A DNA stretch of 25,370 nucleotides from a virus (Duplodnaviria > Caudoviricetes): IMG/VR virus record IMGVR_UViG_3300044675_001822, positions 1 through 25,370 of that record, one strand, 5' to 3'. The notes under the pieces are model-generated. The model was not told the origin of the DNA, did no database searches, and was given only the letters and a program-made list of their open reading frames with translations. The position numbers were made by a program, and so were the translations under genes. Below, piece after piece: positions 317 to 23,408 of this stretch (position 1 is its first letter; every line of letters starts with the position of its first letter).

Positions 317-1054
317 ATGCCGGCAGTAACATCAATCATAGCAGCAGCAGGAGCCGCAGCAAGCGCTGGACAGGCAGTTGCAGCAAACCAAAGAAGAAAG
401 AAAGACGAGACAGCAGCTAAAGAGGCTGCATCGCGTCTTCGTGGTTTAACAGAGACCGACTACTCAGCTGGCCTTCAAGTCCCAACAATGGGGTACAACT
501 TGGCACAGCAGGGTATTCAGCAACAAGCAGCTTCTGGACTACAGGCCTTGCAAGAGACTGGTGCCGCTGGCGTTCTCGGTGGTGTACCATCACTAGTACA
601 GGCTGGAAATCAGGCCAACCAAGAACTATCCGCAGATCTTCAGCAAGCAGAATACAACAGAGACTTGTACCGTTCACAGAACAGACAGGGCATTGAAGGT
701 CGAAGAGTGGAAAGGGATTTTGACATAGGCGCAAGCGAATTACAGGGAGCTCAAATGTCTGCACTTCAAAACAAGCAAATGGTAAACGAGGGAGTCTCTG
801 GTGCGTTCTCTGGACTAACTTCAATGGGAGAGTCTATCGCTACAAACCAAGCGCTATACAAGACAATACCAAAGACAGGCGTTACAATGAACGATGCATT
901 AGCCCCGTTCCAACAGCCATTGAATGCGGAGATGTTGGGTGGTCAAAAGGTTAAAGGTGCGCCACGAGGAACGATGCAGTACGGTAATTCTTCATACGCT
1001 CCTGGCTATAGCCCATTTGGACAAGTTTCAAGTTTAACAATCCCACGTAAATAA
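317..1054 (+). CDS. Probable internal virion/ejection protein (Ala/Gly/Gln-rich)
   Basis: 245 aa; small-residue hydrophobic N-terminus (SIIAAAGAAASAGQAVAA) followed by Gln/Ala-rich helical segments; first of three tightly packed genes of increasing size, as in podovirus-type ejection modules. Confidence 0.65.
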   Translation: MPAVTSIIAAAGAAASAGQAVAANQRRKKDETAAKEAASRLRGLTETDYSAGLQVPTMGYNLAQQGIQQQAASGLQALQETGAAGVLGGVPSLVQAGNQANQELSADLQQAEYNRDLYRSQNRQGIEGRRVERDFDIGASELQGAQMSALQNKQMVNEGVSGAFSGLTSMGESIATNQALYKTIPKTGVTMNDALAPFQQPLNAEMLGGQKVKGAPRGTMQYGNSSYAPGYSPFGQVSSLTIPRK

Positions 1055-1055
1055 G

Positions 1056-2426
1056 ATGCCAGAATATATAGGTTATCAAGGAAGGGCCAAGGGGGTCGAT
1101 TGGGCTGGAATAGCTGACAAGGCTATTACTGGATACAATACGATACAAAAAGATCGTGACGAACAGCGTGCTTCTCTCGAGAAGTCTGCTGACGATTTAG
1201 TTGCTGCCTCAAAATTGTACAAGCCTGGTCAGTCAAATGTATTTAACGAAAAGATTTTAGAGGGTGCCGACAGGGCCAGAACATATACACTAGATCTTAA
1301 GAAGGAATTGATGGCCGGAAGGATTACACCTACCGAATACAAGTCTCGTGTTGGAAAGATGTCTGGTGACTGGAAGGTAGTGGGTGACTTTGCTAAGTCT
1401 TACAACGATATTTTAGCCAAGAACACAGAGTACTTAAACGATCCAAAGGCGTCAGCTCTTGGTGCGTACTTGTTGGAAAAGCAGGCAAGTGTGTCAGACT
1501 TGTCTGGCAAGAACTTCGTAGTAGACCAGGGTGGAAGTATAGTTTTGTCTGACCCAAATTCTGGGATGGTAATTGACTTTATGTCTATGCTTAACCCAGA
1601 GAATCAAACACCACCAAAGCTTGACGTCATTACCGAGGTCGAGAAATTCACTAAGGGACTTGGAGAAACGTCTAAGTACGTGAATGGGCTATGGACAACA
1701 TCTCCAATCCTAAAGACCGACAATGAGTATCAAAAAGCAAAGGCCAACTTTACAAAGTCTATGCTACAGAATCCAAGAGGTGCCGCAAGCATCTTGTCTG
1801 ACTATGTTGGTGGATACGATTTCTACGAGACCGAGCAGCAGAAGAAAGATATTGAAGCTGCAGGAGGAAAGGCCATTCAATTGGTGCTAGGCACAAATGG
1901 CATTGCCACTCCAAAGCTAACAGCAGACCAAGAGAAGGAGGCAAGAGCCGTCTTGGATAGATTGGTTGACTCTCGTGTTGACGTCAAAAAAGACAAACCA
2001 GAGACTATTAGACCAGCTACGCCAGAAAAGCCAGACGAAGGAATCTTGAAGGTTAACAACAGAAGACAGTCAGTTGAAGATATATTCGCAGATCCAGTTG
2101 GTCAATCAGCTCAGTTGTTAGACCAAGAATATAAGCCGGGACAAACAGTTGTTGATGTACAAAAGGTTGTCCCAGAAGGCATGACAAAAGACAAAAAGCC
2201 ATTGCCTCCAGGGATAAGAATAACTAGGAGGAAAACATCTATCGATAAAGATGGAAAAGTTACAGAAAGCTTTGTGTCTGATGATTTTTTTAATGACGCA
2301 GCAAAGCGTGCTATTAATGACGTGTTGAATGTTGAAGAAAATATACCATATTTGAAGGTGTATCCAACAAGAGAGCGAGTTGAAAAAGCAAGAAATACAA
2401 CAATATCAGGAGGAACAGTTAGATAA
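1056..2426 (+). CDS. Probable internal virion/ejection protein
   Basis: 456 aa, no Cys or His; N-terminal 'VDWAGIAD' then charged coiled-coil-like region; 1-nt and 6-nt spacing to neighbours. Function inferred from position only. Confidence 0.55.
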   Translation: MPEYIGYQGRAKGVDWAGIADKAITGYNTIQKDRDEQRASLEKSADDLVAASKLYKPGQSNVFNEKILEGADRARTYTLDLKKELMAGRITPTEYKSRVGKMSGDWKVVGDFAKSYNDILAKNTEYLNDPKASALGAYLLEKQASVSDLSGKNFVVDQGGSIVLSDPNSGMVIDFMSMLNPENQTPPKLDVITEVEKFTKGLGETSKYVNGLWTTSPILKTDNEYQKAKANFTKSMLQNPRGAASILSDYVGGYDFYETEQQKKDIEAAGGKAIQLVLGTNGIATPKLTADQEKEARAVLDRLVDSRVDVKKDKPETIRPATPEKPDEGILKVNNRRQSVEDIFADPVGQSAQLLDQEYKPGQTVVDVQKVVPEGMTKDKKPLPPGIRITRRKTSIDKDGKVTESFVSDDFFNDAAKRAINDVLNVEENIPYLKVYPTRERVEKARNTTISGGTVR

Positions 2427-2432
2427 TAAAAT

Positions 2433-5400
2433 ATGACCGATTTAAAGCAATCATTAAGAGATTTTGTTGCAACAGCAAATAGTGGAAAGTACGCTGATGA
2501 GAATGTATTAATATCTAAATTCCCAGAATTAAAGGGGTACGACATTGGAGTGTTAAAGGATTTTGTTGCTACCTCTAATAGTGGGAAGTATCAAACAGAG
2601 GACGAGTTGTTTTCCAAGTTCCCCGAGTTTGCAGTAAAAAAAAAAGAATTGGTTTCTCCTTCTCAACAAAAAGCTCAACCTACTTCATTGGCTACTGGTG
2701 GGGCGATGGAAGGTGGGCCTTCGGAATCTTCTGTTCCTCTTTGGCTTCAAAATCAAGAACAGCCTAAACCAAAGGTAGCAGAGGAAACTTTGCCATTTAT
2801 GCCGGCCAAGCCTAAGCCCATGTCATTGGGTTCGGCAAGGGTTCCAGAAAAGGGGCCAATATTTGGCGTAGAGAATCCAGAGTTCAAGGAGCCAGAAAAG
2901 ATAGACAAGACATTGGCTAGGCTTCAGACCTCTTTGGTGGACACGGATGAGGAGCAGGCTACTGAAAAATTAAAGTATCTATTTGGTGATCTAGGCTTTA
3001 CATTTGATCAAGCCGGCGTTGGATATGATGCCATCACTGTAACGTCTCCAACCGGAAAGCAATTAGACTTGAGTTGGGATACGTTTACAAAGGGAGGTGA
3101 CGAAGCGGTATTGACCGAGCTGAAGGATTTCATATCAAAAGAAAGCAAGGCTCCGTCGAATGTCGACAGGCTACAAAAATATTACGACGATTCAAACAAG
3201 AAGTTCGTAGACCAAAGGGAGATAAACGAAACAATCGCTACTCTATCTAAAAAGTCTGACGACATTAATGGATTCATAAAAAGTTACAGCGTAAAAAGAG
3301 ATGTTCTTGAAAAAGAAAGTCAGTTATTGTCTGAAACACCAGAGAATCTTAGGGATGCAAACTGGGAGTCTAGGTACAATAATTTCTTAGAAAATGCGGA
3401 CAAACTTGAAGAGGAAAGACTTTCTGTTGTCGAATACCAAAACAACTTTGAAGTTAACAAGGCCGACATTAACAACGCTGTTGGCAAGTACATGCAGACA
3501 GAAGAGAAGATGGGATGGTGGGGTGGTCTTTTACTAAATGAATACCTAGGAGGAAAGGGTGGAGTAGTTTCATCTGCGACAGGTCTTTTTATAGATGGCA
3601 TTGTAAATATGATGCCAACCGAGTCATTGACTGGGGACTATCCAGCCAGATTTGTAGACGCTGCTAAAAAGCTTGGATACAAGGCTGAGGATTATAAGAA
3701 ATTAAAAACATCCTTATCTGAAGACCAAATTGAAGAAATCAACGACAAGGTAGACGACGAGTTAAAGAAGCAACTAAAGTATCAGTACGGTACACTAGAA
3801 ACAGCTCGCGAGGCAAGTGTTAAAACATTTGGATCAGACGAGGTTACAAAGCAATACGAAGAAAAGTTTAAGGAAGGCTTCTTAGGAGGCGCTATTGCCG
3901 GGCTTGCCGGTTCATTGCCTTCAATGCTAGGTCCTGCACCCGCTAGGGTTATCAGTATGTACTCAAGCATAACAGACAGCGTTAACGAGGAGATGGAGAA
4001 AGATCCTGAGCTAAGCAAGATATCTGAAACAGAGAAGAGCTTAGTTTCAGTTCCTATTGGTATTGTAAGTGCTATACTTGAAGAGTTTGGTTTGAGAAAC
4101 GTTGTGGCAAATAAGGGTGTTCTTAATAAGTTAGTGATGAGAATGCTTGGTAAGGTTGGACCAAAAACAACTTCAAGGACATTTGCAGAACTTGTTAGAA
4201 ACGATGTAGAAAGCATGGTTGCAAGAGGATTGCTAACAGTTGGTGGTGGTGCTTTGGCTGAGTTTGAAACAGGTGCACTTCAAGAGGCTTCTGAACAGAC
4301 CATCAAGGCAATATACAACGAAGTAAAGGGAAAAGATGTATTTAAGAATATAGCTCAAACACCATATGAATTTGTTGGGGACATGCTTTACGCAGGTGCT
4401 CAAGAGGCCGTGGGTGGTTTTGTTTTGGGGTCAATACCAGCCGTATCTGCTGCTTACAGAAAGCAGGGCTTTGAGGGCATGTCAGATGTTGACTTTGAAA
4501 AGTTCGAGAGAATAGCAAATGATGACAAGATAGAGTCAGCCTTTGTCACTTCATTAAAAACACAGGTCAATTCTGGAGAAATATCTGTTGCTGAGGCAAA
4601 AGAAACACTGAATGACTATAGAAAGTCGAGAGGCTTGTATAAACAATTGCCAGAGAGCTTGAATACAGAAAACAAGAAGAAGGCAATGAACTTGTTAAGA
4701 GAAAGACAGGGGATTGAACAAGAGATAAGTGGAAAAGACGAGGCTTTAATTAAAACACAAAAAAGTAGGATCCAAGAAATAAATGGATTACTAGAAAATA
4801 TATCTAAACCAGAAAACAATGCCGTTCAAGAGCAAACAACAAGTGAAGTACCTGTACAGTCAGGAACCGGAAGTGGCGAAAAAGTTCAGAAAGGACAGCC
4901 CAAAGCAGAACCTGAAGTCGTTACCGAAGAAGGTGCAGCCAAAGAAGAAGAAGTAAAGCAATACGTTGCAGACCTAGAAGAAACTAAACAGTCTAATCCA
5001 GAACAGTACTGGTCTGTTGACTCTGTAACAGAAGAAGCAGCTAAAGAAGGTACCGTAATCACAGATGAAGATGGGGGGATTGTGGTTTCTAAAGATGGCG
5101 ACATCAAGGGGTTATTCAAAAGGGCTACGTCAAAGGCTAAGGGAGTTGCTCAGAAGTTGCTTCAGAAAGCTGTTGAGGCTGGTGGTGTTAAGTTAGACAA
5201 CTTCGATAACTATCTTACTCCAGTTTACGAAAAGGCTGGTTTTAGAGTTGTATCTAGACTCCCTTTCAATGAGGAGTACGCTCCAGAAGGATGGAACAAA
5301 GAGAAGCACGGAACACCGGATGTCGTAGCAATGGTATACGATCCACAGAATAAACTAGATATTCAAGAACAGAAGTTCGAAGACTACGATGAGGCTATGG

Positions 5401-8400
5401 CATATCGCGATCAACTCGTGGAGCAATCGAAGTCTGAGTATCCAATGCAAAGCAACTTCGACCAGGCCTTGGCTAATTCAGCTCAAGCGCTTAACGTAGT
5501 AGCACCGGGATTAAAGGTGATAGTGGGGGAGAACATTGACGATGTACAGAACCAAATCGTAGAGGCACTAGCGCCATTAGTTGGCGAGAGACAGGCCGTA
5601 AAGGCAGCTGAAGAATTTGCCAAAGGCACCAAGGGTCAGACGATCTTTGTTGACGGCAAGCCGTTCGCTGTGGTATTTGACAAGACTACCGCAGATAGCC
5701 GCACCGCGGGACACGAGGCATGGGAGGTTATGCTGAACGATGCGTTCGGCAACGACCAAGCCAAGTTCAAGGAGTTTACAGCAGGCATCGACTCTCAACT
5801 AAGGGCTCAAGGATTTGGCGATATCGCTGATGCTTTGGACGCATTCGCTAGCCAGAAGGGCTACGAAGCCGTAAAATACTCGGAGTATATGGCTGAGCTT
5901 GGAGGTATGTTGGTAGAAGCTGGTTTCGGAAAGGGACCACTAACGGCTCAACAGAAGACATTACTACAGAAGATCGGTGACATCATCAACAAGTTTGCTG
6001 AGCTATTCACCGGCAAGAAGCAGTTCTTGGATCAGGCTACTCCAGAGGATATCCTTGGTTTCATGGTGACTATCTCTGAAAAGGTTGCTAAGGGTGAGGA
6101 CGTGTCAAGCTTCTTTAGAAAAGGAGAAAAGGCAAAGTCAACCGAAGGCGTGACATCTAGAAAGCAGGCAGAGAAAATATTCACAGGAGAAGAAAAGGTA
6201 CCTACATTTAAGAGCTTACCAGAGATAGCCAATTGGCTCGAGGGTTGGTCTAAGAAGAATAAAATATTTGCAAAAGATATAAAGGATGTATCTGATCAAG
6301 AATTTGTAAAGAAGCTTGAGTCTCATACATTAAAAGAGCTAGCGGCTTGGGATGGTGTTCGTGGTCAGGATTATGTAAGCTTTTATGTTGGAGACATCGT
6401 AGATCGCCTTAATCCTAAATTGCAAAAATTCGCAGAGGCTAGATACGGAAGGATGTTGACACCAGGTGAGGTAACTCTTTACCACGCTGTCAGCGGATTC
6501 GCATCTCCACAGGCAGATCCTATGTTTGACTCTAGCAAGGGTCTTGAGATATTCGACAAGTACATGAATGGTGGAAAGCCAGATGTAAATAAACTATCTG
6601 GTTATGCTGACAAGCAAGCTACTATATATGAATTAAACGACAAAGGAAAGAAAGTAGATACAGGTAAATTAAAGTTTGACAAAGAGGGAAATCCTATTTA
6701 CTCTCAAGTCTCAATGCACTACGCTGTACCTTCTTTGAATAAAATGAAGGCCATGATATCTCATTTTGAAGGAGATGTTGAAAAGGCTATGGAATGGATG
6801 ACATCTATCCACTCTTACGAAGAGATATCCGAAGTAATGGGTACTCCATTAAAAGGGGCCAAGGCTCTTACTCCTCACGAAAACTTGAGCAAGGAAGACG
6901 GTGGATTTGGTATCTTTGGATTTACTGGTGCCAAGTTGGGATCTTATATCCTTAACAGGGTCGGAGAGTACTCTACGGTTACCAAGGACATGTGGTATGC
7001 CAGAACAATGGCAAGACTAGTTGGCGAGCCATTGACAAAAGATGGCAAGGCCATGACAGACCCATGGGCAGCTGGCACTGTTGCTGGTGTGAAGAAAAGA
7101 AAACTTGCAGATCAGGCTTGGGAATCAGTTGCTAAGAAATTAAATATTAGCCCGTCTGACGTTCAAGAAAGAATGTGGGACTTCGAGAAAAGACTTTATG
7201 AAAAAATGGGTGCCATAGAGAAAGCATCTTATGCCTCAGAAGGATTCATGAAGACAGCAAAGAAGCTTGAGCCAGGACTTGACCTAGATACCAAGGTTGT
7301 GGAGTCACGCTCACAGAAAGCTTTTGATGAGTCTATAAAGAAAGAAGAAGCAAGTATAAAGCTGAAGTTTGACAAGAACGGTCAATTGTTGGCTCCAAAT
7401 GGTAAGCCAAGCAATCTCAATGAGGACTTGTCCAGATACACTAGAACAACTGTATTTAAAAACTGGTTTGGTGATTGGGAGAAAGATCCAAAGAACGCTA
7501 GTAAGGTTGTTGACGAAAATGGAGAGCCATTGGTTGTTTATCATGGAAGCCCTTACGGAGGCATTAAAACTTTCGATAGAAAAGAGTCTGCAAAAGTATC
7601 TTCTGGTTTAAAAGAGTTTGGAACGTACTTCACAACAAACAGGAATGTTGCTAACATCTATGCTTCTGAAGGAAAGATCAGCCAAGAAAAAATAAACGAG
7701 ATAGACGGGCAAATAAATAAGCTTCAAGAGGCACAAGACAATACTAGGAACAGTAGCGATTACTATAACTTTGAAAAAGAAATAGAAGCTCTTAAAAAGA
7801 ACAAGTCTCCAAAAGTATACGCTGCGTTTTTGAACTTGAAAAGTATAAAAGACTTCAACGCAGAGCAAAAGTCTTTCCCAGAAGCATGGAGAAATCTGAA
7901 AGTTGATGCTGGATATAAGACAGCTACAGACAGAGATGCCATGGACTTCTTGAGAGAGGGCAAGTTTGGTGTTAAAAAGGTTGATGGAATCAAGGCCTCT
8001 AACATAGTTGACATTGTTTCTCAAGGCAAAAAAGATGGCGACTTTGTTGGAGACGTGTATCTTGCTTTTGACTCCGCTCCAGACGCAATAAGAGTGGTAG
8101 AAACTCCAACTGTAACGTCACGCTCACAGAAGTCTGTTCCACCGGTGGTAGACGAGGTTCTTACCGATGACGGTAAGGGGAACTACCTTTTTGTTCACTA
8201 CTCTGATGAGAATAGAGACGTGATCAAGCCAATGTCAGGATCTAAGAGCAACTTCACAAGCCGTGAAGAGGTATCTGCGATATCGTCTGTTGGTGGTGTT
8301 GCAATGTACTACACAAAGTCCGGCCAGAAAGAGAGCGGTGTTGGGAATGTCCCACACACAGTTCTAGTTCCAAAGGACAAGGTATACTTCTACGGAAGCA

Positions 8401-11400
8401 CAGAAAAAGGAAAAGTATCTCACGATCCAGAAGGATTCGAGGAAGAGGCAAGACGCAGGTTCCAAGAATACAAGAACCGTGGAAACGAGGACAGGCCAAC
8501 AAAGTATGCGTTTGACGCAAACAACTCTGCAGCTTGGGTGACCAAGGTGGCCGCAGAGAACGGATACGATATGCTTGTTACCAACTGGGGAGGGCCAAAG
8601 AGCTACCGTGCACAGACAACCAAGGCATTAAAGCCAGAGGCTGAGTACACTGGTTTCAAGAAGCCAGAGCCCGTGGTATTTGAGGTGGGTGATGAGATTT
8701 TTGTAAGTGGAAACTACGCAAACATAACTGAAGTAAACGGAAGCATTGTAAGATATTCTGGAACAAACCAGTACGGCAACGCTGTGAGTGGAGTGTTTGA
8801 CTTGAACAGGAACAGCAATGCCATCATGATCGAGAAGGCTAAGCCGGTAGTCACCACGCGTGCACAAAGGGTAGATGTTAATGTCATCCCTGGATACGAG
8901 AGGTTTCTTGGTGTTATTGAGGGCATGATTGACAAGGGTATCAAAAGTGGTACGTCTTACAACAAAATTACCGCAAACGTAATTGAATACATACAAAGAG
9001 ACTCTGCTGTTTATGAAAGGGCAGACGATTCTCAGCGTGAGCAGATCATCCGCGACTTCAAGAAGATCAGAGGAGAGAAGTTTAAAGTAGCTCCGTCTGT
9101 GGCTAAAATACTAGGCCAGATCGAGGACATCAAAAAGGTAACAGTAAAAGAGAGCACAGCGCTGAAGGATCAGATCAAGTTGGAGGCCAAGGCAGCCAAG
9201 GACTCTGCAGCCTTTGTAAAGCAGCTCCGCATGGACATATCTGGTAGGTTGAAGTCTATGGTTGGCCGTGGTATGATGTCTGCTAGACAGGCAACTGCTA
9301 TTATCTCTCGCTACGACAAGATGAACATCTTGAACCCTGTGATGCGTGACCGTTTTGTTGACTACATGTCTAGGGTATTCCAAAGCGCCGAGTACATGGA
9401 CAAGATCAAGGAAGCGTCAAAGCTTAGAGCATCTATCAAGAAGGCCATGAAGTCACCAGCAAACCAAGCAGAGATTGCAAAGCTTGCTAAGGACTTTGGA
9501 GACATCGATCCGTCTCGTGTAGAAAATATTGACGACTATATCAATAACGCAACACAGATGCTAAACGCAGTGGCCAGAAAGACTGGAGACCCATTGATGC
9601 GTAGCCTTGTTAACGCTGCTGACATGGCATCTTATATTGAGACAGAAATCAAGTCACAGACAGAGCAGATCAAAAACGAGCTACTCGATAAGTATAAAGA
9701 ATTGGTCGATGCTGGCGTATTGTCAAGTGACATGACCATCAACGAAATCAAGAAGGTAATAGCCGCTATCGAGGAGAATGATAACGAGTCTGTAGCCAAG
9801 GAAGAGAAGGCGAAGGCCGCTGTCAAGGAAATGATGGCCGAGGTATCTCCATTGATTGTGCAGATCGTTAAGACCGGAGAGGATCCGTTTACAGGTGAGC
9901 CTATCGCACTTACGCAGGACGAGAAGAAGTCATTGATTGCATTGACCAAGATGGACACCGACAATCTTTCATTGTCAGAGGCATTGCAGGTGCTTGAGTA
10001 TGCCAACAACTTTGTTGCAAATGGCATCACCTCTGGTATCGATGGAATGGTAAGCCTTTACCAAGGTGGACTGAATGCCGGAGAGTTAGTTGATGATGGA
10101 ATCAAGTCTATCCCACTAAGCAAGTACTTCTCTGGGCTAGTTGGAAGAGTATGGGGCGAAGGATTCGCAACACTTCCAATGCTTAACAAGTTGTTATGGG
10201 GTAACACAAGGCGTGCTATAATGGTCTCTGAGAAGGCCGGAATCAATGGGGTGTCCAATGGTAAGGCCAAGGCCTTGAAGATGGTTGACAATGCTGTTAA
10301 ACAGTACGTAAAGCTATTCTCGAAGACCAAGGACTTCTTAGCAAGTGAGAATGTTGTCGAGCGTGGTGTATTTGCATTCATGTCTAGAAACGTGGTCGGC
10401 GATGAATTCCAGGCGCAAGACGAGTTTAATAGGCGCAAATCACTCATTAAGGAAACAATCCAGGCGCTATCTGACGTAGACAACAACACTGAATCAGAAA
10501 TCAAGAAGGGTGAAGTCATCCAAAAGGTGTACGACAAGGTCTTGAAAGATGCCAAGAATATTAATGACGTCAAGAAAAACGTAAGTCAGATCAACCAAGA
10601 TGCCGTAAACTGGTGGATAAACAAGTGGTCTGAGAACTTCGACCGTATCGACGAGGTATCTAGAAACGTGTACAACACACAGCTGTCTAGGGACATTGAC
10701 TTTACACCCGATAGGTTCCAACTAAAGGAGGCACCAACAGCTGTAGAGGAAGACTTTGAGTCTGGTTTCTTTGGAAACTTTGAGTACGTTGACACGTCTA
10801 AGTCTGGATCACTGAGAAAAAATAACCGTATTTCTAATCTTCCAAAGGACAAGAATGGTATTAAAACCCGTATAGTCAACCTTGACTTTGACGTGAATAA
10901 CGTTAACGCATTCACGAATGCAATGGTAGACGTAGAGACCGCTAGCTCTGTGATGCAGATGAAGGGTTTTGTGACATCTAAAAACTTCTCAAAGCTTTTC
11001 TCAAACAAGGAAGACAAGAATCTTTACAAGAAAAGACTGATCAAGTACGTAAATCGTGCCAAGGGTGGATCTTATGTAGACCAGAACGAGCTATCAAAGA
11101 TAAATAGAACAATTAATACCATTGCATCATTTGGTGTTGCCAAGGCATTGTTTAGTGTGTCACAGCCATTTAAGCAGTTCTTCCCTCCAATGATAAATAC
11201 TTTTGTTCAGACAGGTAGGTTTGACTTAAACAAGTTGCTGTACATGGGCGGAATGGGCTTTATCGACAGTTCTGGTTATCCTATTGCTAACCGTGGTGTT
11301 GCATCTCAGGGTGAACTTAAGTCTATCAACAGACAGTTGGTAGAGGCTGAGAAGAACTTAGCCATGCGTGGACTAGATGGTGTTGCGGAGTTTAGCAACA

Positions 11401-12374
11401 AGACTCTTGAAATTACACTTAAGAATCCGGACATTTTTGCTGCACGTGCCTCTTGGATTTCTTTTTACTTGAGCAAGTTGAAGAAGCAGGGTGTAAATAT
11501 CTCTGGAATAGATTTCAATACTCACGAGCTAAATAAAGATGCGGCTGACTACGCACAGGCGATGGTCGACTCTCAGCAGAACATCAGTGACACCGACATG
11601 CAGGGAGAGATCTTCGCTAGCAAGCAGCCAGCTACCGTGTTCTTGAGACGTGCTATCCTTCCGTTGATGACATTTACCTTGAACCAAAAGACTCGTATAT
11701 GGTCTGATGTAAGAACCCTTTCAAATGACGTGTCGTCAAAAGATGACAAGGTAGAGGCGGCCAAGTCTTTGTCTGGAGCATTGATCGAGTTAGTAGCGTT
11801 CCAGGGAATAGTACTTGCGTTCAAGGAGCTTTACAATGTAGTAGCAGCTGCCATCATGGGTGAAGATGAGGACGAAGAGGAAAAGAAGATTAGAAAGATG
11901 AGACAGTCTCAATCCACTGCTCAGGCATTCATGAAGGACTTCTTCTTGCCACCGATCCCGGGAATGGACATATTGGCTAGCAAGGGTGTCAATTACCTTC
12001 TCGACGAGACAGGCCTATCTGACGAGCTGCCATACAAGTGGTATGGTATCGAGGACGAGGAGCAGAAGTTTAGACTGTACGACAAGATGAACCAAGGTTA
12101 CTTGGACATGCTTGGAACGCAGGGTATTGCGGCAGAGAAGGCTCTTGAACTAATCGAATACTATGACGCTGCTATCGATGGTGAGTTCACCAAAGAGTAC
12201 AACGGCAATAAAGTAAAAAAGGCCCTCATGGAAGAGGACCTTGATATAGCTAGAATGAATGCTGTTATTATGACTGCTTATTATGGAGGAATATTGCCAT
12301 CAGACATGGCCAATATCGTCAACATAATGAACAAGAAGATTCAGAAGAGAGCAGAGCAGGTAGACGAGGACTAG
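2433..12374 (+). CDS. Giant (3313 aa) multidomain polyvalent protein, probable virion-packaged ejection protein carrying enzymatic cassettes
   Basis: Uninterrupted 9.9-kb ORF with A-rich start context (TAATAAAATATG). Gly/Ala-rich hydrophobic helices in the N-terminal region, central enzyme-like domains (listed separately), long helical C-terminal region. Confidence 0.85.
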   Translation: MTDLKQSLRDFVATANSGKYADENVLISKFPELKGYDIGVLKDFVATSNSGKYQTEDELFSKFPEFAVKKKELVSPSQQKAQPTSLATGGAMEGGPSESSVPLWLQNQEQPKPKVAEETLPFMPAKPKPMSLGSARVPEKGPIFGVENPEFKEPEKIDKTLARLQTSLVDTDEEQATEKLKYLFGDLGFTFDQAGVGYDAITVTSPTGKQLDLSWDTFTKGGDEAVLTELKDFISKESKAPSNVDRLQKYYDDSNKKFVDQREINETIATLSKKSDDINGFIKSYSVKRDVLEKESQLLSETPENLRDANWESRYNNFLENADKLEEERLSVVEYQNNFEVNKADINNAVGKYMQTEEKMGWWGGLLLNEYLGGKGGVVSSATGLFIDGIVNMMPTESLTGDYPARFVDAAKKLGYKAEDYKKLKTSLSEDQIEEINDKVDDELKKQLKYQYGTLETAREASVKTFGSDEVTKQYEEKFKEGFLGGAIAGLAGSLPSMLGPAPARVISMYSSITDSVNEEMEKDPELSKISETEKSLVSVPIGIVSAILEEFGLRNVVANKGVLNKLVMRMLGKVGPKTTSRTFAELVRNDVESMVARGLLTVGGGALAEFETGALQEASEQTIKAIYNEVKGKDVFKNIAQTPYEFVGDMLYAGAQEAVGGFVLGSIPAVSAAYRKQGFEGMSDVDFEKFERIANDDKIESAFVTSLKTQVNSGEISVAEAKETLNDYRKSRGLYKQLPESLNTENKKKAMNLLRERQGIEQEISGKDEALIKTQKSRIQEINGLLENISKPENNAVQEQTTSEVPVQSGTGSGEKVQKGQPKAEPEVVTEEGAAKEEEVKQYVADLEETKQSNPEQYWSVDSVTEEAAKEGTVITDEDGGIVVSKDGDIKGLFKRATSKAKGVAQKLLQKAVEAGGVKLDNFDNYLTPVYEKAGFRVVSRLPFNEEYAPEGWNKEKHGTPDVVAMVYDPQNKLDIQEQKFEDYDEAMAYRDQLVEQSKSEYPMQSNFDQALANSAQALNVVAPGLKVIVGENIDDVQNQIVEALAPLVGERQAVKAAEEFAKGTKGQTIFVDGKPFAVVFDKTTADSRTAGHEAWEVMLNDAFGNDQAKFKEFTAGIDSQLRAQGFGDIADALDAFASQKGYEAVKYSEYMAELGGMLVEAGFGKGPLTAQQKTLLQKIGDIINKFAELFTGKKQFLDQATPEDILGFMVTISEKVAKGEDVSSFFRKGEKAKSTEGVTSRKQAEKIFTGEEKVPTFKSLPEIANWLEGWSKKNKIFAKDIKDVSDQEFVKKLESHTLKELAAWDGVRGQDYVSFYVGDIVDRLNPKLQKFAEARYGRMLTPGEVTLYHAVSGFASPQADPMFDSSKGLEIFDKYMNGGKPDVNKLSGYADKQATIYELNDKGKKVDTGKLKFDKEGNPIYSQVSMHYAVPSLNKMKAMISHFEGDVEKAMEWMTSIHSYEEISEVMGTPLKGAKALTPHENLSKEDGGFGIFGFTGAKLGSYILNRVGEYSTVTKDMWYARTMARLVGEPLTKDGKAMTDPWAAGTVAGVKKRKLADQAWESVAKKLNISPSDVQERMWDFEKRLYEKMGAIEKASYASEGFMKTAKKLEPGLDLDTKVVESRSQKAFDESIKKEEASIKLKFDKNGQLLAPNGKPSNLNEDLSRYTRTTVFKNWFGDWEKDPKNASKVVDENGEPLVVYHGSPYGGIKTFDRKESAKVSSGLKEFGTYFTTNRNVANIYASEGKISQEKINEIDGQINKLQEAQDNTRNSSDYYNFEKEIEALKKNKSPKVYAAFLNLKSIKDFNAEQKSFPEAWRNLKVDAGYKTATDRDAMDFLREGKFGVKKVDGIKASNIVDIVSQGKKDGDFVGDVYLAFDSAPDAIRVVETPTVTSRSQKSVPPVVDEVLTDDGKGNYLFVHYSDENRDVIKPMSGSKSNFTSREEVSAISSVGGVAMYYTKSGQKESGVGNVPHTVLVPKDKVYFYGSTEKGKVSHDPEGFEEEARRRFQEYKNRGNEDRPTKYAFDANNSAAWVTKVAAENGYDMLVTNWGGPKSYRAQTTKALKPEAEYTGFKKPEPVVFEVGDEIFVSGNYANITEVNGSIVRYSGTNQYGNAVSGVFDLNRNSNAIMIEKAKPVVTTRAQRVDVNVIPGYERFLGVIEGMIDKGIKSGTSYNKITANVIEYIQRDSAVYERADDSQREQIIRDFKKIRGEKFKVAPSVAKILGQIEDIKKVTVKESTALKDQIKLEAKAAKDSAAFVKQLRMDISGRLKSMVGRGMMSARQATAIISRYDKMNILNPVMRDRFVDYMSRVFQSAEYMDKIKEASKLRASIKKAMKSPANQAEIAKLAKDFGDIDPSRVENIDDYINNATQMLNAVARKTGDPLMRSLVNAADMASYIETEIKSQTEQIKNELLDKYKELVDAGVLSSDMTINEIKKVIAAIEENDNESVAKEEKAKAAVKEMMAEVSPLIVQIVKTGEDPFTGEPIALTQDEKKSLIALTKMDTDNLSLSEALQVLEYANNFVANGITSGIDGMVSLYQGGLNAGELVDDGIKSIPLSKYFSGLVGRVWGEGFATLPMLNKLLWGNTRRAIMVSEKAGINGVSNGKAKALKMVDNAVKQYVKLFSKTKDFLASENVVERGVFAFMSRNVVGDEFQAQDEFNRRKSLIKETIQALSDVDNNTESEIKKGEVIQKVYDKVLKDAKNINDVKKNVSQINQDAVNWWINKWSENFDRIDEVSRNVYNTQLSRDIDFTPDRFQLKEAPTAVEEDFESGFFGNFEYVDTSKSGSLRKNNRISNLPKDKNGIKTRIVNLDFDVNNVNAFTNAMVDVETASSVMQMKGFVTSKNFSKLFSNKEDKNLYKKRLIKYVNRAKGGSYVDQNELSKINRTINTIASFGVAKALFSVSQPFKQFFPPMINTFVQTGRFDLNKLLYMGGMGFIDSSGYPIANRGVASQGELKSINRQLVEAEKNLAMRGLDGVAEFSNKTLEITLKNPDIFAARASWISFYLSKLKKQGVNISGIDFNTHELNKDAADYAQAMVDSQQNISDTDMQGEIFASKQPATVFLRRAILPLMTFTLNQKTRIWSDVRTLSNDVSSKDDKVEAAKSLSGALIELVAFQGIVLAFKELYNVVAAAIMGEDEDEEEKKIRKMRQSQSTAQAFMKDFFLPPIPGMDILASKGVNYLLDETGLSDELPYKWYGIEDEEQKFRLYDKMNQGYLDMLGTQGIAAEKALELIEYYDAAIDGEFTKEYNGNKVKKALMEEDLDIARMNAVIMTAYYGGILPSDMANIVNIMNKKIQKRAEQVDED
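2454..2630 (+). repeat. Tandem duplication of a 33-aa unit at the N-terminus of the giant protein
   Basis: LRDFVATANSGKYADENVLISKFPEL vs LKDFVATSNSGKYQTEDELFSKFPEF: 18/26 identical, period 99 nt. Confidence 0.9.
2636..2645 (+). other. A10 homopolymer, candidate transcriptional-slippage/frameshift site
   Basis: GTA AAA AAA AAA GAA (VKKKE) immediately after the tandem repeat. The run is seen directly; slippage is inferred. Confidence 0.5.
4819..4956 (+). CDS. Nested 45-aa basic protein overprinted in the +1 frame of the giant gene (MPFKSKQQVKYLYSQEPEVAKKFRKDSPKQNLKSLPKKVQPKKKK)
   Basis: ATG 4819-4821 to TAA 4954-4956 with A-rich upstream context (CTAAACCAGAAAACA-ATG, A at -3). It spans a low-complexity linker of the host ORF and resembles small phage proteins I recall beginning MPFKSxxQxxY. 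Confidence 0.7.
   Translation: MPFKSKQQVKYLYSQEPEVAKKFRKDSPKQNLKSLPKKVQPKKKK
5000..5350 (+). other. GNAT acetyltransferase-like domain within the giant protein (approximate bounds)
   Basis: DGDIKGLFK...AKGVAQKLLQKAVEAGG (acetyl-CoA-binding motif-A-like), LDNFD, LTPVYEKAGFRVV (motif B, YxxxGF). Confidence 0.75.
5460..6100 (+). other. Zincin-like metallopeptidase domain with altered motif (HEAWE instead of HExxH); approximate bounds
   Basis: Beta strands (KGQTIF, FAVVFD), then TAGHEAWEVML (His codon at 5712) and downstream SEYMAE helix, which is the zincin layout. Confidence 0.55.
6170..7260 (+). other. HhH DNA-glycosylase-like domain within the giant protein (approximate bounds)
   Basis: FY...ASPQ..., GAKLGSYILN (HhH-like GxK), VTKDMWYARTMARLVG (Asp followed by R, as in the HhH-GPD catalytic segment), SDVQERMWDFEK terminal helix. 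Confidence 0.55.
7304..8131 (+). repeat. 15-bp exact in-frame direct repeat GTCACGCTCACAGAA (7304-7318, 8117-8131) flanking the ART cassette
   Basis: Both copies encode SRSQK in the frame of the giant gene. Confidence 0.85.
7380..8100 (+). other. ADP-ribosyltransferase-like domain (ART-PolyVal type) within the giant protein
   Basis: LLAPNGKPSNL...FKNWFGDWE...SKVVDENGEPLVVYHGS...GTYFT...ANIYA...VYAAFLNLK...DGI...YLAF: the H-Y-x ART pattern typical of polyvalent proteins. Confidence 0.8.
8170..8640 (+). other. Second, divergent ART-like domain within the giant protein
   Basis: LFVHYS (strand-1 His), AMYYT (aromatic strand), ESGVG, VPKDKVY, AAENGYD: same motif order as H-Y-x ARTs but with little similarity to the first copy. 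Confidence 0.45.
8676..8820 (+). other. Small SH3/KOW-like beta-barrel domain
   Basis: FEVGDEIFVSGNYANITEVNGSIVRY pattern. Confidence 0.5.
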
Positions 12375-14068: not shown

Positions 14069-14148
14069 TGCTATTTTTGTGACTTTTAACCATTATATTG
14101 TGCAATTTGTGCTATTTTTGGCACATTTAACCATTATAATGTGCAATT
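14069..14148. repeat. Tandem 39-bp direct repeat (14069-14107, 14110-14148)
   Basis: TGCTATTTTTGtgACtTTTAACCATTATAtTGTGCAATT vs TGCTATTTTTGgcACaTTTAACCATTATAaTGTGCAATT; 35/39 identical. Confidence 0.9.
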
Positions 14149-21210: not shown

Positions 21211-21572
21211 AAATTATCGATCTCTTGTCTTACTCTGTGAAGGTACTCATACATTTCGTCGGCTTGCTTTCCAGTGAACGTGAATGCCACGCCGAGCATG
21301 CTCTGAATTTCTTTGGTTGCGAACAGCTTTGCGGTAGGCCACTCAATACGTGAGTCGTCGCTAATCTTAAAGCTCCTGTTCTTCATGTAATACTCGACCA
21401 TCTCCTTGGCCTTGATTTTTGCTTCTATCATAAATTTAATTGCTTCTTGTATTGTGTCAAACTCTCTTACCCTCTCCATGTTCACGTAAACTCTTATTTT
21501 CCTCTTGTCATTTACTGTCGCTCTTACGATTTGAGTGTTCGAAGGTATGGTTTTTGTGTCGATTTTTTGCAT
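21207..21572 (-). CDS. Hypothetical protein (start uncertain)
   Basis: Start at ATG 21572 preferred, because the extension to 21644 just reads through the iteron repeats; stop overlaps the next ATG. Confidence 0.6.
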   Translation of the reverse strand: MQKIDTKTIPSNTQIVRATVNDKRKIRVYVNMERVREFDTIQEAIKFMIEAKIKAKEMVEYYMKNRSFKISDDSRIEWPTAKLFATKEIQSMLGVAFTFTGKQADEMYEYLHRVRQEIDNL

Positions 21573-21790
21573 TTTGTGTCGATTTTTTGGGGTTTGTGTC
21601 GACTTAGTGTCGATTTTAAAATGAACCGACACAACCAAACTCATTGAATTTCTTCTACTTAGCTATTTTGTGTCGATTTTTACTATACTTATTAGTAATT
21701 TAAAAAAAATATATATAGAATACAATTTTATATATATAGAGTAGGGGACCTAAAAACCGACACAACGACACATGGGGCAGTCCCATGTGC
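21551..21790. other. Candidate iteron-type replication origin
   Basis: Eight (T)GTGTCG copies: direct at 21555, 21575, 21595, 21607, 21669; inverted at 21627, 21758, 21766. They flank an AT-rich tract with TATATATA runs (about 21676-21740); hairpin CACATGGG/CCCATGTG at 21769-21789. Confidence 0.7.
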
Positions 21791-21805: not shown

Positions 21806-22096
21806 TTAGAACGGTAACTCTTCGGATGGTGCGCCTGCCTTCTTGGGCTCATTAGAGGACTTCTCAGCCACTTTAATGCTTCCGTCGGTCCAAACTACCT
21901 TTCCTCCTCCGATGTAGGCCTTAGAAGCCTTCGCTTCGCGTTCCTCTTTTGTCTGCGACTCGTAGATGGAAGCGTTCTTGCCCCACTGGTTCGTTGCATC
22001 GTCTACAGAGATGGTTACGTCAAGGTACTTTCCGTCCTTGATTTTGCTTTTCGTGATCTTGCTCACGTCGATTGATAAACTGATTAATGTACTCAT
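21806..22096 (-). CDS. Probable single-stranded DNA-binding protein
   Basis: 96 aa, beta-rich, C-terminal acidic EELPF tail; directly downstream of the annealase and exonuclease genes. Confidence 0.65.
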   Translation of the reverse strand: MSTLISLSIDVSKITKSKIKDGKYLDVTISVDDATNQWGKNASIYESQTKEEREAKASKAYIGGGKVVWTDGSIKVAEKSSNEPKKAGAPSEELPF

Positions 22097-22827
22097 AGTG
22101 TTTCTTTTGTGTAATACTGTGTGATGTCCTCCGTTTTATTTGGCCCGAAGAACTTGCGCCATACTTCTACTGCTCTTTGCACTTTCTCTTTTCCTCTGTC
22201 CAAGAACTCGTCAGAGCAATCGAATAGTCCTGTCTTGTTGGTTCCCTTTTCTACAGCGATAAAGATAACCGGCTTTCCGAAGATCTGGTTGTAGATGTAG
22301 GCCTGCGAGTCATAGTTATACTTCCTTGCAGAATACTTGAACTCCTCGATGTTTGATGTGGTCTTTAGGTCGATGACAAACTCAGATGAGATGATGTCAG
22401 CCTTCCCCTTCCAGATCTCGCCCATTACATTGGATATACCCGGCTGCTCGTACATATTGCCGTCCTCGTAGATCATGTCGAAGAAGTCCATACGGCCCTT
22501 GACAGACTCGACCATCGAGTCCAGCTCCTCTACCTCCTTAGAGAGAAGTATGATGTCTACACCCTGTGCCTCGCACATCTCTTTGTACTTGTTGGTATTT
22601 CGAGACGTCACGTCGCAGATCAGGAAGTCTACCATCTTCTGTGGCTCCAGCATTGCGGTGTGGAAGTAAGAACCCTGTACCATCGGTACAGTCTTCTCCT
22701 TGTCCTTGCCGTACGATGACGGGTCCTTTAGAAGTGTGCCGATGTCTGAGTTGGACAGGAACTTCTTACCGAATTGCCCGTAATACTCAGAGTCGCTGTT
22801 CAGTCTTGTTAGGATTTCTTGGGTCAC
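22093..22827 (-). CDS. PD-(D/E)xK exonuclease, RecE/ExoVIII-like
   Basis: LSNS, GSYFHTAMLEP, KGKADI, IDLKTT, YNYDSQAYIY. Confidence 0.85.
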   Translation of the reverse strand: MTQEILTRLNSDSEYYGQFGKKFLSNSDIGTLLKDPSSYGKDKEKTVPMVQGSYFHTAMLEPQKMVDFLICDVTSRNTNKYKEMCEAQGVDIILLSKEVEELDSMVESVKGRMDFFDMIYEDGNMYEQPGISNVMGEIWKGKADIISSEFVIDLKTTSNIEEFKYSARKYNYDSQAYIYNQIFGKPVIFIAVEKGTNKTGLFDCSDEFLDRGKEKVQRAVEVWRKFFGPNKTEDITQYYTKETL

Positions 22828-23408
22828 GATGCAACCTCCTTGTTAACCTCTGTCCTGATCACGTCCGTGATGTTGTACTTCTTGGACAACTGCTCAAGGA
22901 TAAACTTCGATCCCTTCTTCTTGTTGGCGTTGACATAGTTCATCACCCTTACCCAGTTCTCATCGCCCAACTCTAGTTCGATGATGATACCCTCTGCACT
23001 TGGTGTGGCTTTGGCCGCCTTCTCCTCGTCTGGCATGTCCTCTCCGGCGTAGACGTAAAGACCTAGTCCGTGTAGTCCGATCGCCTTAGTGGTAGACCTT
23101 TGGATCGCCTTGTTCACGTCAAATGATGTGACCCTCTCGATTGGAAGGGAAGCATTCTTGGCGTCCATAATCGGTAGGTAATCGATGTGCTCCTGCCCGT
23201 CGATGGTGATACCAACCTTGACCCATGCCGTCTTTCCGTCTGTGTGGTAGTTGTTACCGGTCTCAGACTCGTACACCTTTCGTGTCATGTCTGGGCAGAT
23301 CTTCATTGTCTCTTGCCATGCGTAGGCCCAAGACAGGTAACTTTGATTGCCCTTCTTCTCCGTCATCTTGTTGACGTTGATTGCATTTAATTCTTTAAAC
23401 TTGCTCAT
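22824..23408 (-). CDS. Sak-like (DUF1071-type) single-strand annealing protein
   Basis: EKKGNQSYLSWAYAW, YLPIMD, DVNKAIQRSTTKAIGLHGLGLYVYAGEDMP. Confidence 0.85.
   Translation of the reverse strand: MSKFKELNAINVNKMTEKKGNQSYLSWAYAWQETMKICPDMTRKVYESETGNNYHTDGKTAWVKVGITIDGQEHIDYLPIMDAKNASLPIERVTSFDVNKAIQRSTTKAIGLHGLGLYVYAGEDMPDEEKAAKATPSAEGIIIELELGDENWVRVMNYVNANKKKGSKFILEQLSKKYNITDVIRTEVNKEVAS

Follow-up and report, generated by a model that had tools for sequence, protein, structure and literature searches.

A recurrent peptide tag lies where cassettes are exchanged in a giant phage protein and is a probable cut site of its own zincin-like domain

The window, by which we mean the whole stretch of DNA that was analysed, is a 25.4-kb virus record (25,370 nucleotides, IMG/VR record IMGVR_UViG_3300044675_001822, Caudoviricetes), and it holds a giant open reading frame (ORF) in which four copies of a short motif, V-x-[ST]-R-x-Q, separate a zincin-like domain, three cassettes (C1 to C3) and a C-terminal scaffold. 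Among relatives, whole cassettes are exchanged at this motif, hereafter called the tag. The giant gene is laid out as follows.

2433..12374, + strand: giant polyvalent protein of 3313 residues, third in a trio of genes (ORF; Elemovirus homologue; gene order in the complete relative G002)
4818..5450, + strand: upstream variable slot, in which a GNAT-like cassette comes after a conserved NAVQ linker (phrog_2563, E 1.3e-10; weak GNAT)
5451..6134, + strand: zincin-like MPTase domain (HEAWE at 5712-5726, conserved E145/E149; weak zincin fold matches)
6150..6167, + strand: tag 1, VTSRKQ (homology to relatives stops at 6119-6170)
6168..7298, + strand: cassette C1, with a DUF7178-like lead (swapped for other cassettes or missing in most relatives)
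7299..7319, + strand: tag 2, VESRSQK (contains the first 15-nt copy, 7304-7318)
7319..8131, + strand: 813-bp indel unit, cassette C2 (ART-PolyVal) plus one tag (precisely missing from the relative L134)
8112..8132, + strand: tag 3, VTSRSQK (contains the second 15-nt copy, 8117-8131)
8133..8849, + strand: cassette C3, possibly an ART-like domain and a small beta-barrel (the most frequent cassette)
8850..8870, + strand: tag 4, VTTRAQR, ahead of the scaffold (a tag stands at this joint in 83/83 held-out proteins, see below)
8871..12371, + strand: C-terminal scaffold (occurs also in giants that lack both an MPTase of the window type and tags)

An earlier note on this DNA had placed the motif at every cassette boundary. 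There are exactly four copies in the giant ORF (residues 1240, 1623, 1894 and 2140, corresponding to nucleotides 6150, 7299, 8112 and 8850) and none in the remaining six-frame translations of the window; downstream of the zincin they mark each joint, but the GNAT slot, which lies upstream, is exchanged without a tag. Shuffling the giant protein 5000 times gave a mean of 0.044 copies and a maximum of two, a figure that overstates the significance, as the pattern was picked after the sequence had been seen, and the fair test is the one on held-out, unseen relatives given below. Blind motif discovery within single proteins ranked SR.Q first in the window. The 15-mer repeat at 7304-7318 and 8117-8131 is real and, as the note itself had conceded, ordinary when taken alone; since the giant gene contains another, unrelated 15-mer repeat (9312/12078), the lone 15-mer was dropped as evidence. 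The ART cassette C2 had also been described as more A-rich than its flanks, which is true of its right neighbour (A 0.369 vs 0.317, p=0.03) but not of the left, and the G+C content at third codon positions (GC3) behaves likewise, lower than to the right (0.369 vs 0.524, p=4e-4) but not than to the left (0.379, p=0.8). GC3 is 0.38 in C1, 0.37 in C2 and 0.52-0.54 in the MPTase, C3 and the scaffold; it is low at the N-terminus as well (0.37), and composition thus fails to single out C2.

Relatives were drawn from viral and metagenome contigs and comprised 130 zincin ORFs, 68 after duplicate removal, two ORFs being put back afterwards (only their flank was common). Their alignment bears out the prediction that domain content varies and that the breakpoints of indels and replacements map to the tag, with crossovers between -14 and +13 nt of the Arg codon. 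The 24 close giants have 16 different arrays made from 12 cassette types. The clearest case is L134, which is 96% identical to the window in the zincin, 94% in C1 and 96% in the scaffold: 45 identical bases to the left of tag 2 lead into a single copy of the 15-mer that runs on into C3, so exactly 813 bp are missing, while L135 has all three cassettes. The C2 indel recurs between L003 and L004 beside a different left cassette, and in L005 the zincin is directly followed by C3. From about position 9450 the scaffold of L005 is 37% identical to that of the window, compared with 90% for its zincin and 84% for its C3; here the scaffold itself has been swapped, directly behind the last tag. For 15 pairs with a common left cassette the shared DNA stops +11 (10 pairs), +13 (one pair) or 0 (four pairs) from the Arg codon, and for 126 pairs with a common right cassette it starts between -14 and +9. 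An unbiased BLAST tally, in which edge artefacts and drift ends were kept, put 59 of 221 homology ends within 5 residues of a tag (null mean 10.9, maximum 27).

The held-out test used a preset tag pattern on 120 database proteins, 92 of them unseen. The tag was found ahead of the scaffold in 83 of 83 cases, against 0 of 4050 random windows, and after the zincin in 74 of 92, against 34 of 4350; by eye, 17 of the 18 zincin-side misses are variants such as RNQ or VRQ. When the 83 held-out arrays were cut at their tags (with N allowed), they fell into whole cassettes that make 23 different strings, with just two double-cassette fragments (joint KSKSKK) and none far longer than a known cassette. 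For distant clades the loose word [RK]xQ did not clearly exceed the null at homology ends (9/35 against a null maximum of 10, and 12/41 against 13), while the strict pattern did exceed it at starts (9/35, null mean 1.9, maximum 7). Assembled contigs from 8 of 24 lake runs had no joint that skips the 813-bp unit, which is no evidence of absence, because their cover is patchy and rare variants are lost in assembly.

What is conserved in the tag is the peptide and not a DNA site. The recombination joint of the earlier note is shown, in that cassette content varies, breakpoints fall in the tag and the exact form without the 813 bp exists, but the joint is not kept as DNA. The Arg codons of the four tags in the window are AGA, CGC, CGC and CGT, and its tag codons agree in 6 of 16 pairs (6.1 expected from the gene's own codon use). 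Over 25 hand-picked proteins, same-residue codon pairs between tag copies are identical in 216 of 447 cases, where each gene's own codon use predicts 185.8; most of the excess comes from L128 (41/62 vs 23.9). In 45 of 180 Ser/Arg pairs the two codons belong to disjoint boxes. The codons TCA and CAG recur in every one of the 18 C3 starts (the background is 2/17 for six-fold and 12/58 for two-fold columns), and the terminal joint has no codon invariance of this kind. We read the local DNA identity at C3 starts as a footprint of recent crossovers.

Shufflons, integrons and the cassette replacement of polymorphic toxins all exchange coding cassettes at short repeated sites. In contrast to these, the giant carries its cassettes inside a single ORF, in tandem and in frame, and a site-specific system of the shufflon or integron kind was rejected, as no tyrosine or serine recombinase (PF00589, PF07508, PF00239) was found in any of five complete relatives and no DNA site is conserved across the joints. 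The annealase and exonuclease that the earlier note had ascribed to the phage are indeed encoded, next to each other:

22824..23408, - strand: Sak single-strand annealing protein (PF06378, E 7.4e-36)
22093..22827, - strand: PD-(D/E)xK exonuclease, exonuclease VIII-like, adjoining Sak (PF12684, phrog_412)

Sak is present in four of the five complete relatives, in the window alongside the exonuclease, and we infer that it may be the agent of the swaps.

The slot upstream of the zincin also varies and swaps among relatives, and it does so without the tag; the upstream tandem cassettes are flanked by duplicated linkers that lack it. Recombination thus has no need of the tag. Downstream of the zincin, 57 of 61 rows from nine cassette families carry the tag, against 0 of 27 upstream (one row incomplete) and 0 of 1 in a zincin-less giant; these counts come from related rows and from a pattern built on tag flavours already seen. 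A C3 homologue, for instance, follows VKKQ downstream in L132/L133 and is untagged upstream in L084-L088. Among 31 scaffold relatives the tag sits at -61/-62 in the six that have a zincin of the window type and at -4 in one truncated close relative, and the other 24 have a loose match in four cases at scattered offsets. Per 1000 residues the tag density is 3.65 in arrays, 0.62 upstream and 0.25 in scaffolds. As the tag is confined to the region downstream of the zincin, it is likely to mark a candidate cut site of this domain. Besides this position, its conservation as a peptide and the sharing of a flavour within a protein speak indirectly for the protease site that the earlier note had suggested.

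The upstream slot has features of its own. Tandem cassettes in L016, L096 and L101 stand between duplicated acidic linkers (e.g. EEGKVEE twice), which are a tag-free recombination footprint. The NAVQEQTTSEVPVQ linker (window 4818-4870) opens the slot, is conserved in giants with and without the zincin, and matches contigs of many other phages; it is possibly a second anchor or signal.

The zincin label of the earlier note holds for the conserved His and Glu and for E145, but not for the full motif, as the window has HEAWE (HExxE) at 5712-5726 and not HExxH. All 44 sequences that were compared share the motif His and Glu and E145, and E149 is at least 90% conserved; these two downstream glutamates lie on a later helix (143-156), where a zincin has its third-ligand Glu. 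In the model (predicted local distance difference test, pLDDT, 78) the HE helix comes after three strands; its top structural matches are zincins, with weak Z scores of 5.2 (root-mean-square deviation 4.5, 151 aligned) and 4.4. Pfam gave weak SprT-like matches in eight of the 44 sequences and MPTase-PolyVal in two. HExxE is fixed throughout one whole clade (30 tree rows), which possibly has an altered metal site or is a pseudo-protease; a literature search on HExxE activity found nothing related. The wider zincin family counts 1112 clusters at 50% identity, and the statistics on it concern 146 of the best 150 representatives of these. HExxH is kept in 137 of the 146.

The tag in this wider family comes in clade-specific flavours that are repeated within a protein, such as TRAR in L109, PR[QM]Q in L128, SKAQ in L096 and VKKQ in L133, and the core is identical in 130 of 299 within-protein pairs from 65 representatives (shuffled mean 83.5, maximum 120). 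In a blind search for words enriched behind the zincin of the 146 representatives, SKS, RSQ, SK.S and SK.Q came out on top, and a wider tag pattern occurs in 96 of the 146 representatives, against a background of 31%. An invariant Q is ruled out for the wider family, since Ser, Ala or Arg are found at this position.

The cassettes themselves are identified to a varying degree. C2, which had been called ART1, matches Pfam PF18760 (ART-PolyVal) with 42.3 bits (cut-off 31.2) over profile positions 1-66 of 140, at about 7512-7733 of the window. C1 may be DUF7178-like: the atlas gave 0.98 to clusters with 33-76% DUF7178, recognition being below threshold, and three alternative cassettes in the C1 slot match DUF7178, one of them above the cut-off. 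C1 has no sequence match in Pfam, PHROG or PDB, and a glycosylase-like (HhH-GPD) identity, as in its earlier label, is tentative. For C3 the leads are an ART-like domain (atlas 0.85) and a small beta-barrel; its model is poor (pLDDT 56), with no Foldseek match at E<=0.001 and SH3/KOW-like rows only at E>0.1. YRAQ is invariant inside C3 (window 8604-8615); it falls on the final strand predicted for the ART-like part and is tag-like yet no breakpoint. The upstream slot of L007 (7383-8000) and of the Elemovirus giant holds a DUF3293 / S-adenosylmethionine lyase-like cassette, which is plausible as anti-restriction cargo, and some of the tagged cassettes in L096, L098, L108 and L117 are long leucine-rich-repeat-like arrays.

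Ahead of the giant gene lie the two other genes of the trio:

317..1054, + strand: small gene that opens the trio and encodes a virion structural protein (phrog_13764, E 4.6e-08)
1056..2426, + strand: second gene of the trio, 456 residues (without a family match)

From the position of its gene, and from a homologue annotated as a structural protein, the giant is likely an ejection protein, which would be packaged in the virion and delivered to the host. The complete relative G002 encodes GroES and GroEL (L163 2839-3393, 18564-20000), possibly an aid to the folding of the giant protein. The window further contains two short near-perfect repeats, one intergenic (14069-14148, 2 x 39 nt) and one that overlaps the start of a small ORF (21539-21681, 4 x 17 nt).

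The giant belongs with the polyvalent proteins, as several biochemically distinct domains (ART-PolyVal, GNAT-like, zincin-like, DUF7178-like) share one polypeptide and the architecture varies among relatives, with 16 arrays in 24 giants and 23 strings in 83. We compare it with published systems as these appear in parts of the respective papers. Polyvalent proteins (Iyer et al. 2017, PMC5512222) are likewise giant and multidomain, with MPTase, ART-PolyVal and GNAT-like domains in variable content; the covered text describes no recurring tag between domains (the word linker occurs 0 times) and no tag-precise exchange, and the supplementary alignments, which lie outside it, might show a tag. The HExxE of the window's clade falls outside the variants described in section 8 of that paper. 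The virion RNA polymerase (vRNAP) gp50 of coliphage N4 (PMC13434306) is also a third ejection protein, of about 3500 residues and built like beads on a string, and as in the window giant an HExxH-type domain precedes a large helical C-terminal part. Unlike N4 gp50, the window giant has no RNA polymerase, and gp50 is described in the covered part as staying in one piece, with no swappable tagged array reported. The polyvalent protein gp47 of phi24B (bioRxiv 10.64898/2026.04.10.717836) was detected in virions, carries a metallopeptidase and is a proposed ejection protein; its authors suggest that the peptidase degrades peptidoglycan, and the covered text describes no junction tags.

A cultured likeness is the giant QMP87591.1 of Elemovirus (phages of Flavobacterium sp. 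BAL314, 68 records), whose MPTase is homologous and reads HEIFH. It has cassettes of the D-like and C3-like kinds, and the same three joints carry the tags SRFQ, TRQQK and VRMQK, near residues 1683, 2079 and 2302. It differs from the window giant in being cultured, in its canonical HExxH, and in being annotated merely as a structural protein. The MPTase and scaffold of the window have no direct match among cultured phages, and the link was reached through a fold match and distant relatives. Five Elemovirus isolates that were compared share one architecture and differ at 28-37 residues. From this likeness the host of the window's phage would be one of the Bacteroidota, and a cultured phage with the same layout makes the claim testable. 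A literature search, to which most subscription journals were out of reach, returned no report of a junction tag or of tag-precise exchange in polyvalent proteins. Polyvalent proteins have been described before, as has the idea that the MPTase cuts its own chain, and the junction tag with its tag-precise exchange appears to be new.

We propose, with a probability of about 0.6 and judging from sequence comparison, that the tag, in the general form [ST]-[RK]-[SAK]-Q, is a putative cut site of the protein's own upstream zincin and that its codons double as micro-homology for cassette swaps. The giant protein would be ejected into the host, and the zincin, acting in the head or once ejection has taken place, would cut at the tags that follow it, which would free C1, C2, C3 and the scaffold. 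With a cut behind every Q, these pieces would measure about 43, 30, 27 and 131 kDa, and the part ahead of them about 137 kDa. The tag codons would offer 10-25 nt of in-frame micro-homology to the Sak annealase and the exonuclease, and selection on the tag would preserve at once the signal for release and the place of swapping. Autoproteolysis by the MPTase of polyvalent proteins has already been proposed (PMC5512222). A broader claim is tentative and falls a little short of even odds: that a widespread family of Bacteroidota-type phages, with over 1100 clusters at 50% identity, runs a self-processing magazine of effectors, in which the zincin of the ejected protein reads a lineage-specific tag of four residues that incoming cassettes must adopt. 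One short sequence would then be both cleavage code and cloning site, and the window's clade would use an HExxE metal site; we hold this part to be just as tentative.

Several observations weigh against cutting by the zincin. The clade of the window reads HExxE, without the second zinc His, as do 9 of the 146 representatives. The strict tag occurs in only 55 of the 146, and 50 have no word of the wider pattern at all, many of them showing [ST]-[RK]-[SA]-S instead; blind discovery in single proteins put a tag word in the top three in 11 of 39 proteins (12 flagged, one false). The invariant YRAQ and further tag-like words sit inside cassettes, and two of the 83 held-out arrays have a joint with Q replaced by K. 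The sharing of flavours within proteins could stem from clade history, and the relatives behind all these counts are non-independent samples. The N4 vRNAP has an MPTase of its own and is packaged without processing (PMC5512222), the model of PMC13434306 keeps it linked after ejection, and the protease site of ArdC was dispensable in the assay used (PMC7213743), as far as the covered parts of these papers go.

Much of this would suit a tag that is read as a peptide and stays intact, a strand for docking or spacing to which a non-catalytic zincin or the scaffold binds and which would order the cassettes for packing, threading or refolding while recombination ran through the tag codons just as in the cleavage model. 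The HExxE of the window's clade, the uncleaved N4 vRNAP and the dispensable ArdC site favour it, the alternating V-x-[ST] ahead of the tag suits a strand, and all peptide-level evidence fits equally well. However, the full HExxH in 137 of 146 family members, the conservation of the clade's own Glu, and a tag that is present at the scaffold joint and absent upstream, as fits the release of cargo, make us regard docking as unlikely, if worth keeping in mind. Alternatively, the tag could be cut by another protease, from the host or an unrecognised one of the phage, with the zincin having a different substrate; the zincin of the window may be impaired by its HExxE, and a motif with basic residues could suit a host enzyme. 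This we find improbable, as the tag tracks the position relative to the zincin and is missing in zincin-less scaffold relatives, no protease family is named among 38 ORFs of G002, the S78 protease (PF04586) was not found in five complete relatives, and the strict tag with K is confined to the giant among 43 ORFs of G002.

The motif could also be purely a DNA joint, site-specific or of homogenised micro-homology, with the peptide as a by-product. In favour of this are the 15-nt identity that flanks C2 in the window and L003 and cassette G in L002, the invariant TCA and CAG of the C3 starts and the common codons of the L128 copies. Against it, codon agreement is close to chance both overall and at the terminal joint, Ser and Arg change codon boxes, the three recombinase families are unmatched in the complete relatives, and the upstream slot swaps without the tag, so that we consider this reading very improbable.

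Polyvalent proteins have been known since 2017, and two questions about them have stood open, namely what the substrate of the MPTase, their commonest domain, is and how the shuffling of their mosaics stays in frame. For the first the tag is a candidate substrate at the level of residues, and for the second a swap point at the level of bases. Cassettes that are tagged downstream and untagged upstream are natural controls, and Elemovirus on Flavobacterium is a cultured system. The tags also split giants of unknown content into clean candidate enzymes directed against the host or its defence.

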